A DNA stretch of 64,000 bases from positions 9,233 to 73,232 of the forward strand of contig CAOKQM010000002.1 of NCBI GenBank assembly GCA_948470875.1, read 5' to 3'. This DNA comes from an uncultured Clostridium sp. Its GTDB lineage: Bacteria > Bacillota > Clostridia > TANB77 > CAG-508. The position numbers and the translations under genes are program-made. This document shows, piece after piece, positions 6,628 to 23,251 of the stretch. Under the pieces are notes generated by a model, which worked only from the letters and a program-made list of their open reading frames with translations, ran no database searches and had not been told where the DNA came from. Each line of letters opens with the position of its first letter. Within the stretch, counting starts at the first letter, position 1.

Positions 6628-6873
6628 TTATGCATTTGCGTATTTAGTTTTTGCTGCATCAATTTTGGTTTGTTCAGCAACATCTGTTTTATACCAGCCT
6701 TTTTCAGCCATTAAGTTATAAATTTTATTTTGAATATCTAAAGAAATATTTAATGCTTCTTTAAATGCTTGATGAACCTCAGCAGTTGTGCTCTCAAGTG
6801 TTCCATGAAGATATAAGTCACAAACACCTTTGATAACCAACAATTCATTTTCCATTAAATCTCTATCTTCCAT
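6628..6873 (-). CDS. Coat-F-like small spore coat protein
   Basis: 81-aa helical protein resembling the Coat_F family. GGAGGA RBS 6 nt upstream. Forms a tandem pair with a second small Coat-F-like gene. Confidence 0.6.
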   Translation of the reverse strand: MEDRDLMENELLVIKGVCDLYLHGTLESTTAEVHQAFKEALNISLDIQNKIYNLMAEKGWYKTDVAEQTKIDAAKTKYANA

Positions 6874-6883
6874 GATTTCCTCC

Positions 6884-7058
6884 TTACAATAAATTTTTAA
6901 ATTTGTTTAGCAAATCCGTATGCGTTTTTTGAAGTTCTGCTACATAAGCAGAAAGCGCAGGATCTGTTAATTTTGAAGATGTTTTTCCGAGCGCAACATT
7001 TCATGAATTTCTCATGACCTAACGCATCTTCTACATATAAAAGTTCTTTGCTTGTCAT
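6884..7058 (-). CDS. Small Coat-F-like protein; frame break at in-frame CGG (minus strand, 6989-6987)
   Basis: Starts MTSKELLYVEDALGHEKFMKCCA, then CGG. The +1 frame continues GKTSSKLTDPALSAYVAELQKTHTDLLNKFKNLL* and stops 10 nt before the next gene's ATG, its last codons overlapping that gene's RBS. The 0 frame gives an unrelated Cys-rich tail. Confidence 0.5.
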
Positions 7059-7238
7059 AATTATCACCATTCCTTTCTTGTATTAAAAATAGTATTTCCC
7101 AAAATAAAAAGTGTATACCAAAAAGGAATTTTAATGTTCATTTTCGTTAATCAAAAAATCTATGTTATATCTCATTTTTTACACTTAAAAATAGGACAAG
7201 TAAGTTAAAAAAATATATACTATAATCGTTGGAAAGTA

Positions 7239-7268
7239 TTGACATGTCAGAAAAAAGTATGATATAAT
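7239..7268 (+). promoter_or_regulatory. Sigma-A-type promoter for the large surface-protein operon
   Basis: TTGACA, 18 nt spacer, TGATATAAT (extended -10). Confidence 0.6.
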
Positions 7269-7343: not shown

Positions 7344-10300
7344 ATGAAGTTAAAAAAATTACTTATTATTTTTTTACTCGTCACACTTTTTGTAGCTCAA
7401 ATCAGTTGGCTTACATTAAGTGATTTTGTTTATGCGGCAGAAAGTCAAGAAACTGGTAAATTTCATTATGACCAACTTGAGCCAGAAGCCCAAATAATAT
7501 ACAATGCATTATTACATATGTATGATAATGGTATATTAAAAACAGGAAACCAAAGTTATGACCTTGTTCAAAATGGTCATTTTACAGAGGAACAAGTTAA
7601 AGAATATGAAAAAGGAAGTTCTAATTTAAGTTCAGCAATGGAAGCTGCAAGATATGCTTTTTATGCAGATTACCCAGAAGTTTTTTATGTGAATTTCCAA
7701 AAATTATCAATCCGAATAACCAAAGATGCACAAAATAAATATCATGCAAATTTAGGTTCAGGAAGATTTGCTAATTATTACACAGATGGCTTTACAAGTC
7801 AAGAGCAAGTAGAACAAGCCATTTCAGAGTTTAACGATTGTGTTAATGAGATTGTTCAAAAAGTAAATGATATCGAAGTAGAAGCAAATAAAAATAAAAT
7901 CGTACAACAAATTAAATTAGTACATAATGAAATTATCTATAATACAGGTTATAGACTAGAAAGTGATTGTGAAGAAGGAAACGAAGGTTTTTTGGGAACA
8001 CCATATGGTGCTCTTGTAAAAAAACAAGCAGTATGTGAAGGATATGCAAGAGCTTTCAAAACGATTTTGGATAAAGTAGGAATCAACAACATCCTTGTAC
8101 AAGGAACACATCAATCAGATGGTGCGGCAGCTGTTCCTCATATGTGGAATTATGTTCAAATTGAAAAAGAAACACTTGCTAGAAGTAGTGAAAAAGTTTG
8201 GTATGCAGTAGATGCTACATTAGATGATCCGTTTTTACGTGATACAACGATGGATCCTACACATCCAGATTTTATACCAGGAAGTGATATACAAGAAGGA
8301 TTTGAAAATACAAGATATTGCTTAGTTGGAACAGAAACGATGAATAAAGAACACGTTGCTTTAGAAACAGTTGAAGCTGCAGGAAATTATACTTTTAGAT
8401 ATCCAGAATTAAATATAGAAGATTATGGTCTTGATAATGTAACAAATGTTAATGGATTATTAGTAAAATTCAAACAAGAAGGAACAGAAACAGAAGAATA
8501 CAAAGCAGGAGATTTCTATATTAGTTATAACAATAAAGGTTATACAGAAGCTGCTAAAGAAGGAAAATATATTTTAATGAAATATCATGAATATAGACCA
8601 GGAGATGATAAGTGGATTGAAGGAAAATGGGGATATTTTTTACCAGATGTATATGCAGGTGGATTTGTTGATTATGTTGATCATGTTTATGTAACAGTTC
8701 CAAATTCAGAATATGTTGAATTTGCAGTAACAACTTTAGCTCCAGGAGATTATAAAAATAATCCTTTATATTTATCATATCAAGGTGATGAATCTGATTT
8801 TGTAGCGCAATCAGGAAAATTATATAATCCAAATGGAACATATAAATCTGCTCCATATATTAAATATCAAACACCAGCAGCAACAGCATCACTTACAGTA
8901 GGACCTACTTACCATGTTGATGTTACTTATACTGATGATTTAGTATTAGCTGACGGAGCAACAGAAGCTGGTTATAGAATGGAATCAACAGGAGCAACAG
9001 GTGTTGCTGAATCAAAAATAGAAAACTTTACTTTTGATGGAAAAAATAGAATAACATTTGATTTAACATTTAGTAAAATGTTTGCAGATGACGATGCTAT
9101 GTATAGAATTTATATAACAGGTTTAGTAGGAAAAAATAGTTATAAAGAACCAAACTACATCTCTTATGGAGCCTCTAATTTAATAGCATGTTCTTTCAGT
9201 ATGAATGCAGCAAAAAGTTGGGATGTATTTGCTAGACCAACACTTCTTGAAAATTCTGACTTATCAATGAATGGTTGGCAAACAAGTGATGGAGAATTAG
9301 TATCAGAAAAACTAAAAAGCAGAATAGCATTAGTAACAACAAGAACTACTCAAACAGAAAAAGATGCAATGAATGATTTAATGGAAGAACAATTAGGAGA
9401 ACAAGAATTAATTACAAGTGAAACATATAATATTTCATTAAATGTATGTAAAAAATATGTTGTAAAAACAGGACATAGACTAAGATTATCTTTAGGATTC
9501 CCAGCGGGATATGGACCAGATGATGCGGGAGTTACCTTTAAAGCATATCACTTTAAAAGAGATGCAGAAGGTAATGTAACAGGAGTTGAAGAAATTCCAT
9601 GTGTAGTAACACAATATGGATTAATTGTTACATGTGACTCATTTAGTCCATTTGCAATAGCTGTAACAGAAAATGATGGAACTGTAGCGCAAGAAAAAGC
9701 AGTAATTGTATCTAGCACAGAAGGTGGTATCATAGAAGGTGCAAATCGTGAAGAAGGAAATATTGTTACTTTAGCAGAAAATGAATCAGCAAATCTTAAA
9801 GTTGTTCCAGAGGAAGGATATGAAATTGAATCAGTAACCGTTTGTGGAAATACAACTGAAATAACAAATAAAGATGCAATGGATGTAACAGTAAATTATA
9901 GTGATGTAAAAGATGGAAATTGTATTGTTGAAGCAAAATTTGTTGCTAAAGCAGTTACTACAGCTGAAGAAGAAAGAGGAGAAACAGTTGTTGTTCCAAA
10001 AGCTGTTCCAGCAGAAATTACAATGCCTCAAACAAAAATGGGAGTTGTAAATGGAACTTTAAAAATAGAGCCAACTGTTACACAAACACCAGGAATTCAG
10101 ACTTATCAATGGTATAAAGATGGAACAAAATTAGAGGGAAAAACAAATAAAATATTAGAAATTGCTAATGCTACAAGCGAAGCAGCAGGAAATTATGTTT
10201 TAAAAGTTACAACAACAGCAGAAACTTCAAGTGAAGAAGTAGAAAGTTCTGTTTGTGCAGTTACTATGGTTACATCAGGTTTTTCAACCTCAATTGAAAA

Positions 10301-11090
10301 TGTAGAAGAAAAAACAATTTATCCAGGGGATGAATTCGAAGTTAATGTTAAAATACAAGATTTTGAAAATGTAGGTAATGGATTGGTTTCAATTGGAGGA
10401 CAATTAGAATATGACACCAATGTTTTAGAAATAGTGCAAATAGAAAGTCAAAATAATTGGGATATGGAAGAATCTTTCAATGAAGAAAATTTCCAATTTG
10501 TAACCGATAATAATCAATACGTAACACAAGATAGCGATATTTTCAAAATCAAATTTAAAGTAAAAGACTCTGTTACAGAAGCTTTAAATACAATTATAAA
10601 AATCAAAAATATAGAAGCAAGCAATGGAGAAATGGATATTTCTTCACCAGATGCACAAATCGAAAAAAGCATTGAAAAAAGACCAGAATTAATTACTTCT
10701 GAAAAATACAAAATTGAAAATGCAGTAATTCATAGAGTAAAACCAGGAACTACTGTGAGTGAGTTTAAAGCAAATGTTCAAACTATGCAAAATATAACAA
10801 TTACAGATAAAGAAGGAAAAGTGCTTGGTGAAAATGAAATTCTTGCAACTGGTATGACATTACAAGTAGGAAGTTCGTTACAATTTACACTTGCCATAAC
10901 AGGTGATATTGATGGAAATGGTCAAATTACTTTAACAGATCTTGCTAAGTTAAAATTACATTATATTAATAAAAAATTATTGACAGGAGTTAATTTAAAA
11001 GCAGCCGATTTAAATGGAGATGACGGAATAACAATAACTGATTTAGCAAAACTAAAATTAGTATTAATCAATCTAAAAGAAATTGAATAA
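7344..11090 (+). CDS. Secreted multidomain protein: transglutaminase-like cysteine-protease core, Ig-like domain, cohesin-like domain, C-terminal type-I dockerin
   Basis: Signal peptide. Transglutaminase core CEGYARAF..HMWNYVQI..VDATLDD. Ig-like YQWYKDGTKLEG..AGNYVLKV. Cohesin-like GDEFEVNVKIQDFENVGNGLVSIGGQLEYDTNVLEIV. Dockerin duplicated Ca-loop GDIDGNGQITLTDLAKLK / DLNGDDGITITDLAKLK. Confidence 0.8.
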   Translation: MKLKKLLIIFLLVTLFVAQISWLTLSDFVYAAESQETGKFHYDQLEPEAQIIYNALLHMYDNGILKTGNQSYDLVQNGHFTEEQVKEYEKGSSNLSSAMEAARYAFYADYPEVFYVNFQKLSIRITKDAQNKYHANLGSGRFANYYTDGFTSQEQVEQAISEFNDCVNEIVQKVNDIEVEANKNKIVQQIKLVHNEIIYNTGYRLESDCEEGNEGFLGTPYGALVKKQAVCEGYARAFKTILDKVGINNILVQGTHQSDGAAAVPHMWNYVQIEKETLARSSEKVWYAVDATLDDPFLRDTTMDPTHPDFIPGSDIQEGFENTRYCLVGTETMNKEHVALETVEAAGNYTFRYPELNIEDYGLDNVTNVNGLLVKFKQEGTETEEYKAGDFYISYNNKGYTEAAKEGKYILMKYHEYRPGDDKWIEGKWGYFLPDVYAGGFVDYVDHVYVTVPNSEYVEFAVTTLAPGDYKNNPLYLSYQGDESDFVAQSGKLYNPNGTYKSAPYIKYQTPAATASLTVGPTYHVDVTYTDDLVLADGATEAGYRMESTGATGVAESKIENFTFDGKNRITFDLTFSKMFADDDAMYRIYITGLVGKNSYKEPNYISYGASNLIACSFSMNAAKSWDVFARPTLLENSDLSMNGWQTSDGELVSEKLKSRIALVTTRTTQTEKDAMNDLMEEQLGEQELITSETYNISLNVCKKYVVKTGHRLRLSLGFPAGYGPDDAGVTFKAYHFKRDAEGNVTGVEEIPCVVTQYGLIVTCDSFSPFAIAVTENDGTVAQEKAVIVSSTEGGIIEGANREEGNIVTLAENESANLKVVPEEGYEIESVTVCGNTTEITNKDAMDVTVNYSDVKDGNCIVEAKFVAKAVTTAEEERGETVVVPKAVPAEITMPQTKMGVVNGTLKIEPTVTQTPGIQTYQWYKDGTKLEGKTNKILEIANATSEAAGNYVLKVTTTAETSSEEVESSVCAVTMVTSGFSTSIENVEEKTIYPGDEFEVNVKIQDFENVGNGLVSIGGQLEYDTNVLEIVQIESQNNWDMEESFNEENFQFVTDNNQYVTQDSDIFKIKFKVKDSVTEALNTIIKIKNIEASNGEMDISSPDAQIEKSIEKRPELITSEKYKIENAVIHRVKPGTTVSEFKANVQTMQNITITDKEGKVLGENEILATGMTLQVGSSLQFTLAITGDIDGNGQITLTDLAKLKLHYINKKLLTGVNLKAADLNGDDGITITDLAKLKLVLINLKEIE

Positions 11091-11108
11091 AAAACTAAAG
11101 GAGAAGCT

Positions 11109-11969
11109 ATGAAAAATAAAATAGTAAAAATAAGTTTAATTTTAATAAGTATTATGTGTGTAGCAGTGATGCATGTGTATGCTGCATCATGCACAGTAAA
11201 TTTGCAAACAGACAAAAGTGAAATTGATAAAAATCAAGAATTTGTAGTAGATGTTGTAATTTCTAATATTCAAGTTGAAAACGGAATAATTGCATTAGGA
11301 GGTATATTACAATATGATAAAACAAATTTACAATTAGTAAAAATGGAAGGACAGAATTCTTGGGCAACACCTTCTTACAATGAAGAAGATGGTTCGTTTG
11401 TAATGGATAGAGGTTCTTTAGCAACAAGCCCTGAAACAGCATTTAAGATAACATTTAAAGCAATAGGTGAAAATGGAAAAAGTGCTAATATTGCACTAAG
11501 TGGAATCTCTGTTTCAGATGGGGAAGAAGATATTACCGTACCAAATGCTTCTAAAACAGTTACAATGAAACTAAATGCACCATCTACTAATACCAATACA
11601 GGAAATACAAACACAAATACAAGTACAAACACAAGCAACAATCAAGTAAATACAAATAATACTACAAATAATAATACTACAACAAACAATAACACAAATA
11701 CAAATAAACCGAATGTGAATACAAACAACAATAGTGGAACAACTACGAATCCAAATCAATCTAGTCAAACACCAGCTCCAAGTGGAAGTGGAACAACTAC
11801 AAATAAACCAATAAAAGCAAATACAAACACAGAAAAAACAGGAATATTACCAAAAGCAGGAGACACTAATATTGTTTTAGTAATAGCAATTGCAGTTGTT
11901 GGCTTAGCAGTAATTTTCTATATCAAAATGAAAGGCATTGATAAAAAAGTTAATAAACATAGTAAATAA
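11109..11969 (+). CDS. Cell-wall-anchored cohesin-domain protein (LPxxG sorting signal)
   Basis: Signal peptide. Cohesin-like QEFVVDVVISNIQVENGIIALGGILQYDKTNLQLV. Asn/Thr-rich linker. LPKAG (11847-11861) followed by a hydrophobic segment and a basic tail. Confidence 0.7.
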   Translation: MKNKIVKISLILISIMCVAVMHVYAASCTVNLQTDKSEIDKNQEFVVDVVISNIQVENGIIALGGILQYDKTNLQLVKMEGQNSWATPSYNEEDGSFVMDRGSLATSPETAFKITFKAIGENGKSANIALSGISVSDGEEDITVPNASKTVTMKLNAPSTNTNTGNTNTNTSTNTSNNQVNTNNTTNNNTTTNNNTNTNKPNVNTNNNSGTTTNPNQSSQTPAPSGSGTTTNKPIKANTNTEKTGILPKAGDTNIVLVIAIAVVGLAVIFYIKMKGIDKKVNKHSK

Positions 11970-11986
11970 AAATTAAATATGATTTT

Positions 11987-12031
11987 AATAACTAGAAGTT
12001 AGTTTTAAAAACTAATTTCTAGTTATTTTTT
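11987..12031 (+). terminator. Rho-independent terminator
   Basis: 18-bp stem AATAACTAGAAGTTAGTT / AACTAATTTCTAGTTATT followed by a T-run. Confidence 0.8.
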
Positions 12032-12076: not shown

Positions 12077-12130
12077 TTGACAATTGGAATATAGCATGGT
12101 ATAATCTATTTAGAAATATTTCTAAATAGA
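12077..12130 (+). promoter_or_regulatory. Promoter plus perfect 26-bp palindromic operator of the sdpR-sdpI operon
   Basis: TTGACA, 17 nt spacer, TGGTATAAT. Immediately followed by TCTATTTAGAAAT|ATTTCTAAATAGA (12105-12130). Confidence 0.65.
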
Positions 12131-20718: not shown

Positions 20719-23251
20719 ATGCAAAAAATGAAGTTTGCAATTCAAGGCATGACATGTAGCAGTTGTCAAGCACATGTGGAAAAAGCGGTTCAGAAGTTAG
20801 CAGGCGTGCAAAACGTAAGTGTCAATTTGCTTTCCAATGATATGACAGTTGAATACGACGACAACATTTTAGATAACGACAAAATCATAAAAGCCGTGAT
20901 AGATGCAGGATATGGGGCAAGTATTAAAAATATAGAAAACCAAAAGCATAATCCCAAAGAAAAGAAACTTGACAACAAAAGTGTTCTAAAATCCATGAAA
21001 AAAAGGTTGATTTTATCACTTGTTTTCTGGATTCCGCTGATGTATCTTGCCATGTATCACATGTTTTATGAATGGTTTGGCTTGCCAATTCCCCAATTTA
21101 TGTTGGAAACATTTCATGGAACAGAAAATGCGATTAGTTTTGGTTTTATGCAATTTTTGCTTTTATTGCCAATCGTATATGTTAACCGAAATTATTTTAT
21201 TGTTGGTCTAAAAAGGCTTGCTAAAAGAGCGCCAAACATGGATTCTTTGATTGCTATTGGGAGTTCAGCTGCGATTTTTTATGGAATTTATGCTATTTTT
21301 ATGATTGGGTATGGGTTAGGACATCACCAAATCCAACTAGCTGAGCATTTTTCAATGGATTTGTACTTTGAATCTGCTGGAACTATTTTAACATTAATAA
21401 CAGTTGGTAAATATTTAGAAACAAAATCGAAAAATAAGACCAGTGACGCTATTAGTAAACTAATGAATTTAGCCCCTAAAACAGCAATTGTTTTGCGAAA
21501 TAATCAAGAAGTTGAAATAGCAGTAGAAGAAATTTTGGTGGGGGATATGATTATCATTAAACCTGGAGGAAGTATTCCTGTGGACGGAATTGTAGTCGAA
21601 GGAAGTTCGTTGGTGGATCAAGCAAGCATAACAGGAGAAAGCATTCCAGTTCAAAAAAGTAAGGGCGATACAGTTGTTTCAGGAACAATTAACAAAAATG
21701 GCTATTTTAGAATGAAAGCAACAAAAGTTGGAAAAGATACTACCCTTTCACAAATTATTCAGTTGGTGGAAGAAGCAGGAAATTCTAAAGCGCCAATTGC
21801 AAGATTAGCAGATAAAGTAAGTGGAGTTTTTGTGCCTTGTGTGATAACGATTGCGTTTTTAGCAAGTATTTTTTGGATTTTGCAAGGGCAAAGTTTTGAA
21901 TTTGCCCTAAGTATTGGAATTGCTGTTTTGGTGATTTCGTGTCCATGCGCTTTGGGACTAGCGACACCAGTTGCAATTATGGTTGGAACTGGCAAAGCTT
22001 CTGAAAATGGAATATTAATAAAATCCGCAGAAAGCTTGGAATTATTGCATTTGGTGGATACAGTTGTACTTGACAAAACAGGTACAATTACAAAACGGAA
22101 AACCGAAAGTAATTGAGATTGTTTCTAAAATAGAAGAAAATGAATTATTGCAAATTGCAGGAAGTTTGGAACAAAATTCGGAACATCCTTTGGCAGAAGC
22201 AATTTTGGAAAAAATCAAAGAAACAGAAATTGAACCATTTACAGTAGAAGAATTCAGTAGTGTTTCTGGAAGAGGAGTTTTTGGAAGGATACAACACAAG
22301 CTTTATTTTGGTGGAAATTTGGCATTTATGAAAGAAAATGCAATTGATACACAGGAAATAGAAAATGATACAAATGAATTTTTAAAGCAGGGAAAAACGG
22401 TTCTTTATTTTGCAAATGAGAAAAGTGTAATTGGTGCTATTAGCGTGGCAGATACGATAAAGGAAACGAGTTATGAAGCCATTCAAAATTTAAAAAGAAA
22501 ACAAATAGAAGTTGTTATGCTAACTGGTGATAATAGTGTAGTTGCGGATTCAATAGGAAAAAAATTGGGACTTGACAAAGTGATTTCTGAAGTGCTGCCA
22601 CAGGAAAAAGAACGAGAAATTTCAAAATTGCAAGAACAAGGCAAAAAAGTAGCATTTGTAGGAGATGGAATTAACGATAGTCCCGCATTAGTCAAAGCAG
22701 ATGTTGGATTAGCAATTGCCTCTGGAACAGATATTGCAATGGATTCGGCAGATATTGTACTAATGAAAAATAATTTGCTTGATGTAGCTACTGCGATTGA
22801 TTTAAGCAAAGCAGTTATTCGCAATATAAAAATGAATTTATTTTGGGCATTTTTTTATAATTGTGTGGGGATTCCAATTGCGGCAGGCGTATTTTATTTG
22901 GGATTTGGGTTAAAATTAAATCCGATGATAGGTGCGCTAGCTATGAGTCTAAGTTCAGTTTGTGTTGTAACAAATGCTTTAAGATTACGAAAATTTAAAT
23001 CTGTAGTAGAGACACCAAAAATAAAACAAAATAAAAAGGAGGAAAAAATAATGATAAAAACAATTTTTGTTGAAGGAATGCAATGTAACCATTGTAAAAT
23101 GAGTGTGGAGAAGGCATTAGGAGCAATTGAGGGAGTAGAAAAAGTAGAAGTTAGTTTAGAAGAGAAAAAAGCTGTGATAGAAATGACGAAAGAAATTGAA
23201 GATAATAAAATAAAAGAAGTCATTGAAGAAGCTGGATTTACAGTAAAATAA
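20719..23251 (+). CDS. copA: Copper-translocating P1B-type ATPase with N-terminal and extra C-terminal HMA domains; frame break at in-frame CGG 22096-22098
   Basis: GMTCSSC HMA, CPC motif SCPCALGLATP, phosphorylation motif DKTGTIT, then CGG. The +1 frame continues GKPKVIEIV..SEHPLA..GDGINDSPAL. The C-terminal HMA carries GMQCNHC. Confidence 0.88.

Follow-up and report, generated by a model that had tools for sequence, protein, structure and literature searches.

A putative Clostridium operon predicted to display a transglutaminase-like enzyme at the cell surface through a cohesin and a dockerin

Organization of the two-gene locus

We analyzed a stretch of DNA of 64,000 nucleotides (nt) from an uncultured Clostridium sp. 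(contig CAOKQM010000002.1 of assembly GCA_948470875.1), referred to below as the window, which has a G+C content of about 29%. The subject of this study is a pair of adjacent genes in this window, open reading frame 1 (ORF1), which encodes a secreted multidomain protein with a transglutaminase-like domain, a cohesin and a dockerin, and ORF2, which encodes a predicted wall-anchored cohesin protein. The coordinates of both genes and of their features are collected in Table 1, and those of the genes agree with a preliminary description of the same DNA.

By their layout, ORF1 and ORF2 look like one operon. They share strand and reading frame, and the 18-nt gap between them, too short for a promoter, contains a GGAGA ribosome-binding site ahead of ORF2. 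In a promoter scan, the sigma-70-type promoter upstream of ORF1 matches the consensus at 12 of 12 positions with an extended -10 element; the scan gives only 9-of-12 matches inside the ORFs. The hairpin that follows ORF2 folds at -19.6 kcal/mol with a z-score of -5.9, and none of 200 shuffled sequences folds equally well. A second perfect promoter (positions 12077-12105) serves the gene after ORF2.

Table 1. Features of the ORF1/ORF2 locus (positions are those of the window; residues in amino acids, aa).
Feature	Positions	Strand	Residues	Remarks
Sigma-70-type consensus promoter	7239..7268	+		TTGACA, 18 nt, TG-TATAAT; about 75 nt upstream of ORF1
ORF1, secreted multidomain protein	7344..11090	+	1248 aa
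ORF1 signal peptide	7344..7436	+	1-31	MKLKK, hydrophobic core, VYA|AE; read from sequence
ORF1 helical and transglutaminase-like domain	7437..8333	+	32-330	predicted catalytic Cys231, His266, Asp290
ORF1 beta-sandwich domains	8334..9683	+	331-780 (about 450 aa)	highly conserved; without Pfam family
ORF1 InlB B-repeat-like domain	9696..9983	+	785-880	weak Flg_new_2 match (Pfam)
ORF1 immunoglobulin (Ig) I-set-like domain	9996..10268	+	885-975
ORF1 class-1 cohesin	10281..10679	+	980-1112
ORF1 X module	10689..10895	+	1116-1184	small beta domain; always ahead of this dockerin type
ORF1 dockerin	10896..11087	+	1185-1248	two Ca-binding loops, DIDGNGQITLTD and DLNGDDGITITD, with a helix after each
ORF2, predicted wall-anchored cohesin protein	11109..11969	+	286 aa
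ORF2 class-2 (anchor-type) cohesin	11187..11573	+	27-155
ORF2 Asn/Thr-rich stalk	11574..11843	+	156-245	low complexity
ORF2 sorting signal	11847..11966	+	LPKAG at 247-251	21 hydrophobic residues and basic tail after LPKAG
Terminator hairpin	11987..12027	+		19-bp stem, then U run; 3' of ORF2

The transglutaminase-like core of ORF1

The three putative catalytic residues of ORF1 show no substitution in either of two homologue alignments, one of 30 and one of 85 sequences, with identities down to 43%. The AlphaFold model of aa 32-790 (mean predicted local distance difference test score, pLDDT, 82) has Streptococcus pyogenes TglA (9crn) as its top match in the PDB (Foldseek E 2.9e-11), and the ORF1 family profile matches the same protein with an E value of 1e-7. 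The motifs around the triad align between ORF1 and TglA as VCEGYA with VCNGYA, HMWNYV with HAWNAV and YAVDAT with YGVDVT. Distant ORF1 orthologues clear the cut-off of the Pfam family Transglut_core, with scores of 28.7-38.4 bits. In NCBIfam, ORF1 gives a partial match to MAG6410 (E 2.4e-17) that lies well below the whole-protein cut-off of this model.

Alignment and structural model together indicate that ORF1 carries a transglutaminase-like core with a conserved Cys-His-Asp triad on a papain-like fold. Its catalytic domain is most likely a thiol hydrolase (a protease or an amidase) or a protein cross-linker, and its substrate is most likely an extracellular protein or glycoprotein. The preliminary description had named this protein a transglutaminase-like protease: the invariance of the triad and the structural match to TglA bear out the Cys-His-Asp core of the transglutaminase type, and the protease label itself is an assumption.

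The region that follows the core, aa 331-780, has an almost entirely beta secondary structure in the AlphaFold model, and its Foldseek matches are tandem Ig-like or Fab-like sandwiches. Many alignment columns in this region are invariant.

The C-terminal modules of ORF1

Read from its N-terminal end, the AlphaFold model of aa 775-1248 (pLDDT 88) consists of a B-repeat-like domain, then an Ig domain and a cohesin, and finally the small beta module X and a dockerin with three helices. The B-repeat-like domain is folded in the model, with a pLDDT of about 80. For the Ig domain, the Ig_3 match at aa 891-955 is under the Pfam cut-off, and the ORF1 family profile matches Ig domains of phage tail and Hoc-like proteins with an E value of 2e-15. 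The cohesin is recognized by PF00963 at aa 987-1110 with 42.5 bits for a cut-off of 24.1. Its closest solved folds by Foldseek are cohesins of the C. perfringens GH33 sialidase (2vo8, template modelling score 0.80), of C. thermocellum OlpC (4dh2_C, 0.64) and of R. flavefaciens ScaC (5lxv_A, 0.59).

No Pfam family matched the X module, and the pair of X module and dockerin, here called X-dockerin, is kept together in many proteins. The dockerin scores 33.6 bits with Dockerin_1 (PF00404) at aa 1187-1238, for a cut-off of 22.9, and a PDB search with its sequence returns dockerins. A type I dockerin is defined by two repeats of about 22 residues, each with a calcium loop (Asp or Asn at positions 1, 3, 5 and 12) and a helix; the ORF1 dockerin is of this type both by profile score and by its duplicated loops. 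The Ig-like domain, the cohesin and the duplicated-loop dockerin that the preliminary description had proposed for ORF1 are all upheld by these matches.

ORF2 as a probable sortase-type cohesin anchor

ORF2 begins with a signal peptide. It aligns with the ORF1 cohesin over residues 44-147 at 39% identity (E 1e-16), and PF00963 is matched by 59 of 99 ORF2 family members at E<=0.01. When the family profile is searched against the PDB, 13 of the 14 matches at E<=1 are cohesins, the best being CipC (1g1k, E 8.7e-4), followed by ScaB, OlpC and NagJ. Family-level evidence makes the domain a clear candidate for a divergent cohesin, as the preliminary description had suggested.

The same description had assigned to ORF2 an Asn/Thr-rich stalk and an LPKAG cell-wall sorting signal, and both assignments are supported. 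The stalk consists of 33% Asn and 30% Thr. Its DNA (11603-11707) is made of imperfect tandem repeats of 6, 15 and 18 nt and ORF2 orthologues range from 227 to 327 aa, so that the stalk probably changes in length through repeat slippage. At the position of LPKAG, orthologues have LPKAG, LPKTG, LPQTG or IPYTG, always followed by a hydrophobic span and a basic tail; since these pentapeptides alternate among orthologues, we read LPKAG as a variant LPXTG signal. Gram_pos_anchor (PF00746) is matched by 16 of the 99 family members.

Conservation of the gene pair and exchange of anchors

ORF1 homologues form 520 clusters at 90% identity. The best-scoring 120 of these are 52-79% identical to ORF1 and most are full-length; the few among them with any name are called 'hypothetical protein'. 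The source organisms of these 120 clusters are uncultured Clostridia, most of them recorded in catalogues of the mouse gut. A genome collection limited to one genome for each species has 140 stretches with a gene for an ORF1 relative, and 80 of these were used for the comparison of orthologous loci.

We counted gene pairing among 65 dockerin-bearing ORF1 orthologues of at least 1000 aa, all from uncultured Clostridia. An ORF2 homologue lies directly downstream in 56 of the 65. Three further loci have an ORF2 that is either split or separated from ORF1 by the insertion of a dockerin gene, and in two the contig ends. In four loci (L056-L059), ORF1 has no internal cohesin, keeps its X-dockerin and is still accompanied by ORF2, which makes ORF2 the only candidate partner of the dockerin encoded at these loci.

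More distant orthologues, from Lachnospiraceae, Oscillospiraceae and Acutalibacter, retain the protein from aa 1 to about 975 and end differently. Three SLH domains are the commonest C-terminus; others have a VPETG or LPETG sorting signal, and still others have what appear by eye to be FN3-type repeats. The cohesin-X-dockerin tail together with ORF2 thus appears to occupy the place that a direct wall anchor has in the relatives. We take the job of the tail to be anchoring because SLH domains or LPXTG signals stand in the same place in distant orthologues, and this swapping of anchors is the strongest available sign, from sequence comparison, of an anchoring tail.

X-dockerin proteins beyond ORF1 and the two cohesin classes

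When the X-dockerin was searched against 1.84 billion representative proteins, 856 matched at E<=1e-10. Among the best 149 of these, no single architecture is more frequent than that of proteins of about 300 aa composed of cohesin, X module and dockerin. Forty-eight larger representatives most often match F5/8 type C, BspA-type leucine-rich repeat (LRR), NPCBM and DUF285 families, and a papain-family protease with a lectin-like domain is also common. No glycoside hydrolase family is found among the 25 commonest Pfam matches of these 48 proteins, and no glycoside hydrolase domain in eleven other dockerin proteins scanned from sibling loci. Membership of a cellulosome or an amylosome was rejected, as no dockerin-bearing glycoside hydrolase was seen among the proteins scanned.

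The small proteins consist of a signal peptide, a class-1 cohesin, an X module and a dockerin only (for example L014:1197-2120, P0297, P0299, P0305 and P0309, the last with two cohesins). Their make-up suggests subunits that serve purely as adaptors or chain extenders.

Sibling loci also carry dockerin proteins of 1500-2100 aa with NPCBM and F5/8 type C domains, with or without an X module (L057:11987-16852, L021:11914-17895, L026:3654-8186 and L041:12703-18948). Their NPCBM domain is N-terminal, and about 700 aa in the middle belong to no family. We considered a C...GIPA...GH motif in this middle region as a second transglutaminase-like core and rejected it: BLASTP against ORF1 gave nothing, and the PDB matches were TPR-like only.

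Two loci have a Peptidase_M26_N (IgA1-specific metalloprotease) protein beside the ORF1 orthologue, L014:2158-7539 (1793 aa) and L029:29-7798 (2589 aa). The L014 protein additionally has a GLUG motif and an N-terminal dockerin of another sequence class, 30-38% identical to the ORF1 dockerin, a hint of a second dockerin specificity. The M26 proteins hint at host IgA or mucin as targets.

Cohesins of this set are 45% identical within class 1 (the ORF1 type), 42% within class 2 (the ORF2 type) and 28% between classes, and the nearest neighbour of a cohesin is of its own class in 100 of 100 cases. Of 115 class-1 cases, 109 have an X-dockerin on the same polypeptide; of 186 class-2 cases, 172 have a tail with an LPXTG signal or a membrane span. 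By sequence, these are two anciently separated classes. There is no appreciable concerted evolution of the two cohesins of one genome, whose identity is 0.289 compared with 0.279 between genomes, a negligible difference.

The two repeats of the dockerin co-vary. Across 50 orthologues, position 11 is T/T in 29 and N/N in 17, and position 17 is K/K in 46 and M/Q in 4; a symmetric dockerin with a partner-binding surface is expected to vary in this way. When the T/N state of position 11 was compared with cohesin columns, the best value was 0.92 in both cohesins for an N-terminal background of 0.88, a comparison confounded by phylogeny. The ORF1 dockerin of the same genome is nearest to the other dockerins of its locus in 2 of 12 cases (median rank about 12 of 66), a weak signal.

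A surface-display model and its alternatives

We consider it probable, if well short of certain, that the operon places a large enzyme outside the cell wall, with the ORF2 cohesin holding the ORF1 dockerin. After export of ORF2, a sortase whose gene lies elsewhere in the genome would process the LPKAG signal and so attach the protein covalently to peptidoglycan, with one cohesin borne on a flexible Asn/Thr stalk. ORF1 would be exported as well, and its C-terminal X-dockerin would bind the ORF2 cohesin in a calcium-dependent manner. The Cys-His-Asp domain would then be held off the cell by a stalk of about seven beta-sandwich or Ig-like domains. The class-1 cohesin of ORF1 would stay free and could take up a second dockerin protein or another ORF1.

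This model has strong, if indirect, support in the operon layout, the pairing of the two genes, the conserved sorting signal and the swapping of anchors; the binding between ORF1 and ORF2 modules, the processing by sortase, and the activity and substrate of the enzyme are predictions. The preliminary description had proposed a two-component surface scaffold. Pairing and anchor swapping speak for the display that it implies, but the pair is not a closed two-component system: sibling loci add further dockerin proteins.

Several results weigh against the model. Profile searches, which the preliminary description had named as a check, gave a divided answer: the ORF1 cohesin and dockerin are over their cut-offs, but ORF2 itself has no cohesin (PF00963) match in Pfam, and Transglut_core (PF01841) reaches 21.5 bits on ORF1 aa 182-291, just below its cut-off of 23. 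The latter call is backed by the invariant triad, the scores of the orthologues and the structural match to TglA. ORF2 scores 11.7 bits with the LPXTG model TIGR01167, under the cut-off of 15.9, Ala replacing Thr in its signal. A search for a sortase motif (TLxTC) that covered the window and the 80 related loci found none, which leaves room for a sortase elsewhere in the genome. Four of the 65 loci (L015, L026, L029 and L032) have no adjacent ORF2. In a mirror-tree analysis of 50 paired loci, the partial correlation of the dockerin with the ORF2 cohesin is 0.32 vs 0.44 with the cohesin of its own protein; unrelated domain pairs give similar correlations, and hence the analysis does not discriminate between partners. 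Finally, for the function of TglA, the closest solved relative of the enzyme, no paper was found in the library searched.

In one alternative, the ORF1 dockerin mainly binds class-1 cohesins, either of other ORF1 molecules or of the small cohesin-X-dockerin proteins, forming head-to-tail chains, with ORF2 anchoring another dockerin type or the last unit. The regular presence of class-1 cohesin and X-dockerin on one polypeptide, the abundance of the small proteins among the 149 representatives (one of them in locus L014), the self-binding of the dockerin of R. bromii Amy4 and the slightly higher distance correlation with the dockerin's own cohesin all point this way. We nevertheless hold it unlikely as the main arrangement: in L056-L059 the ORF1 cohesin is gone yet X-dockerin and ORF2 are kept, and replacement of the whole tail by SLH domains or an LPXTG signal in distant orthologues argues for an anchoring role. 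Binding to itself and binding to an anchor are moreover compatible, as the Amy4 dockerin does both.

Less likely again is that the cohesin and dockerin modules do not bind each other at all, ORF2 being an independent wall adhesin and the dockerin a calcium-stabilized module for a host or glycan ligand. In favour of this, binding is a prediction from sequence, ORF1 occurs without ORF2 in L015, L026, L029 and L032, and ORF2 diverges fast, its best relatives being about 58% identical in the cohesin vs 77-79% for the closest full-length relatives of ORF1. Against this stand the adjacency of the genes in 56 of 65 loci across many species, the symmetric co-variation of the two dockerin helices, and the recurrence in L015 and L065, with other cargo, of the same order, dockerin gene first and anchor-cohesin gene second. 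The modules also bind in every experimentally tested system of the same architecture known to us.

There is a similarly slight chance that ORF1 is mainly a non-catalytic adhesin or scaffold, its transglutaminase-like core a binding domain and its Ig-like domains attaching to mucus or cells, as would suit its largely Ig-like and beta-sandwich make-up, the resemblance of its Ig domain to phage Hoc and tail Ig domains and the LRR or lectin-like nature of much other X-dockerin cargo; but the triad and its surrounding motifs are invariant in 85 homologues, unlike a decayed active site.

The surface-display model can be extended, at a low probability comparable to that of the head-to-tail arrangement. 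The pair could lie at the centre of a so far undescribed surface complex, made by uncultured rodent-gut Clostridia, that acts on host proteins and glycoproteins. In it, X-dockerin proteins would be attached to sortase-anchored class-2 cohesins, and cohesin-X-dockerin cassettes, present on ORF1 and on many of the small proteins, would form non-covalent, pilus-like chains, joined head to tail, that carry IgA-protease-like (M26), papain-like, NPCBM, F5/8 and LRR cargo beside the transglutaminase-like enzyme.

Genomic surroundings

ORF1 and ORF2 are flanked by genes that are usual on the chromosome of a spore-forming Clostridium. Upstream lie genes for an HtrA-like protease, SpoIIE, a WG-repeat protein, AcpS and TatD, and downstream an ArsR/SdpI-like pair, a DtxR-type repressor, a SUF Fe-S operon and MnmA. 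On the opposite strand, within the 795-nt gap that precedes ORF1, lies a gene for a spore coat protein F (Coat_F, 81 aa, 6628-6873, - strand). Next to it is an ORF of 57 aa (6897-7070, - strand) that begins MTSKELLYVEDALGHE and ends in an odd Cys-rich tail; it may be a frameshifted remnant. An Rfam scan of the whole window, including this gap, matched no family.

Exactly one dockerin and two cohesins are encoded in the entire window. Among the annotated neighbours, which cover 0-27 kb of the window, there are no degradative carbohydrate-active enzymes, in line with the absence of such enzymes noted in the preliminary description. Beyond 27 kb, the ten largest ORFs were scanned. The sole carbohydrate-active enzymes among the scanned ORFs are biosynthetic and belong to a surface-polysaccharide cluster (43837-53088, + strand), about 32 kb from ORF1 and ORF2. 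This cluster encodes a GT1/GT4 glycosyltransferase, a polysaccharide pyruvyl transferase, a flippase and an FrhB/FdhB-like Fe-S protein, together with a weak Wzy-like match (E 0.017, under the cut-off).

Two further ORFs, 35547-37637 (+ strand, 696 aa) and 33363-34538 (+ strand, 391 aa), have no Pfam match. A heavy-metal P-type ATPase at 20719-23251 (+ strand) appears to be split into two overlapping ORFs, 20719-22116 with HMA and E1-E2_ATPase domains and 22064-23251 with a hydrolase domain and HMA, which suggests a frameshift or a sequencing error.

Significance

So far, experiments on cohesin-dockerin assemblies have dealt almost exclusively with bacteria that degrade fibre or starch, and in the ORF1/ORF2 operon the same display mechanism would carry a different enzyme. 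It is unusual to see anchor modules swapped in nature as cleanly as in these SLH, LPXTG and cohesin-dockerin tails, and because orthologues interchange them, the tails speak strongly for an enzyme that works at the cell surface. Since lectin-like and IgA-protease-like dockerin proteins join the set in sibling loci, the sequences hint at host mucosal proteins, and not plant polymers, as the targets of the system. The operon is compact as well as conserved, and the pair is small enough for a direct test with recombinant modules.

Comparison with known systems

The closest tested precedent is the Amy4/Sca2 pair, part of the starch-degrading amylosome of Ruminococcus bromii, which has the same architecture as ORF1 and ORF2. 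Amy4 (Sca1) is a secreted enzyme of about 1350 aa with a cohesin and then a dockerin at its end, and Sca2 has a single cohesin and a C-terminal sortase signal (PMC4611034). Two cohesins are bound by the Amy4 dockerin, that of Sca2 and that of Amy4 itself; Sca2 additionally accepts dockerins of peptidase and LRR proteins (PMC4611034). By analogy, it is plausible that the free ORF1 cohesin recruits other proteins or self-polymerises, as the preliminary description had suggested. The cargo differs, being a GH13 amylase in Amy4 and a transglutaminase-like enzyme in ORF1. ORF1 also has an X module ahead of its dockerin and forms a conserved operon with ORF2, and binding is predicted for ORF1/ORF2 whereas it has been measured for Amy4/Sca2.

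R. flavefaciens FD-1 has 10 dockerin proteins with transglutaminase-like domains, besides LRR, protease and serpin cargo; in the published operon table the transglutaminase-like proteins are drawn as signal peptide, transglutaminase-like domain and dockerin, with no cohesin shown (PMC2930009). We liken them to ORF1 by description. They sit in a plant-fibre cellulosome with many glycoside hydrolases, whereas none was found with ORF1 and ORF2. R. flavefaciens ScaE is a sortase-anchored single cohesin, as is predicted for ORF2, and it receives X-dockerins.

In C. thermocellum, the X-dockerin of CipA binds a separate class of wall-anchored cohesins (type II; SdbA, OlpB and Orf2p), and another cohesin class takes the cargo dockerins. 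The two cohesin classes of ORF1 and ORF2 fit this two-tier layout. The anchors of C. thermocellum, however, use SLH domains where ORF2 has a putative sortase signal, and CipA is a scaffoldin with nine cohesins and no enzyme whereas ORF1 combines one cohesin with an enzyme. The ORF1 dockerin scores as type I in Pfam, in contrast to the type II interaction of C. thermocellum.

The cohesin-dockerin complexes of C. perfringens glycoside hydrolases are likewise non-cellulosomal and come from a gut-associated Clostridium, and the cohesin of the GH33 sialidase is the closest structural match of the ORF1 cohesin. There the modules join secreted glycoside hydrolases to each other, and we know of no sortase-anchored partner or transglutaminase-like cargo in that system. 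S. pyogenes TglA, the best match in sequence and structure to ORF1 aa 32-330 (approximate limits), has 361-379 residues, is 17% identical to this region and is without Ig, cohesin or dockerin modules.

Taken as a whole, ORF1 and ORF2 are a probable case of non-cellulosomal cohesin-dockerin surface display, which is a known kind of system. What distinguishes them are the transglutaminase-like cargo, the conserved operon, the X module and the swapping of anchors among orthologues.

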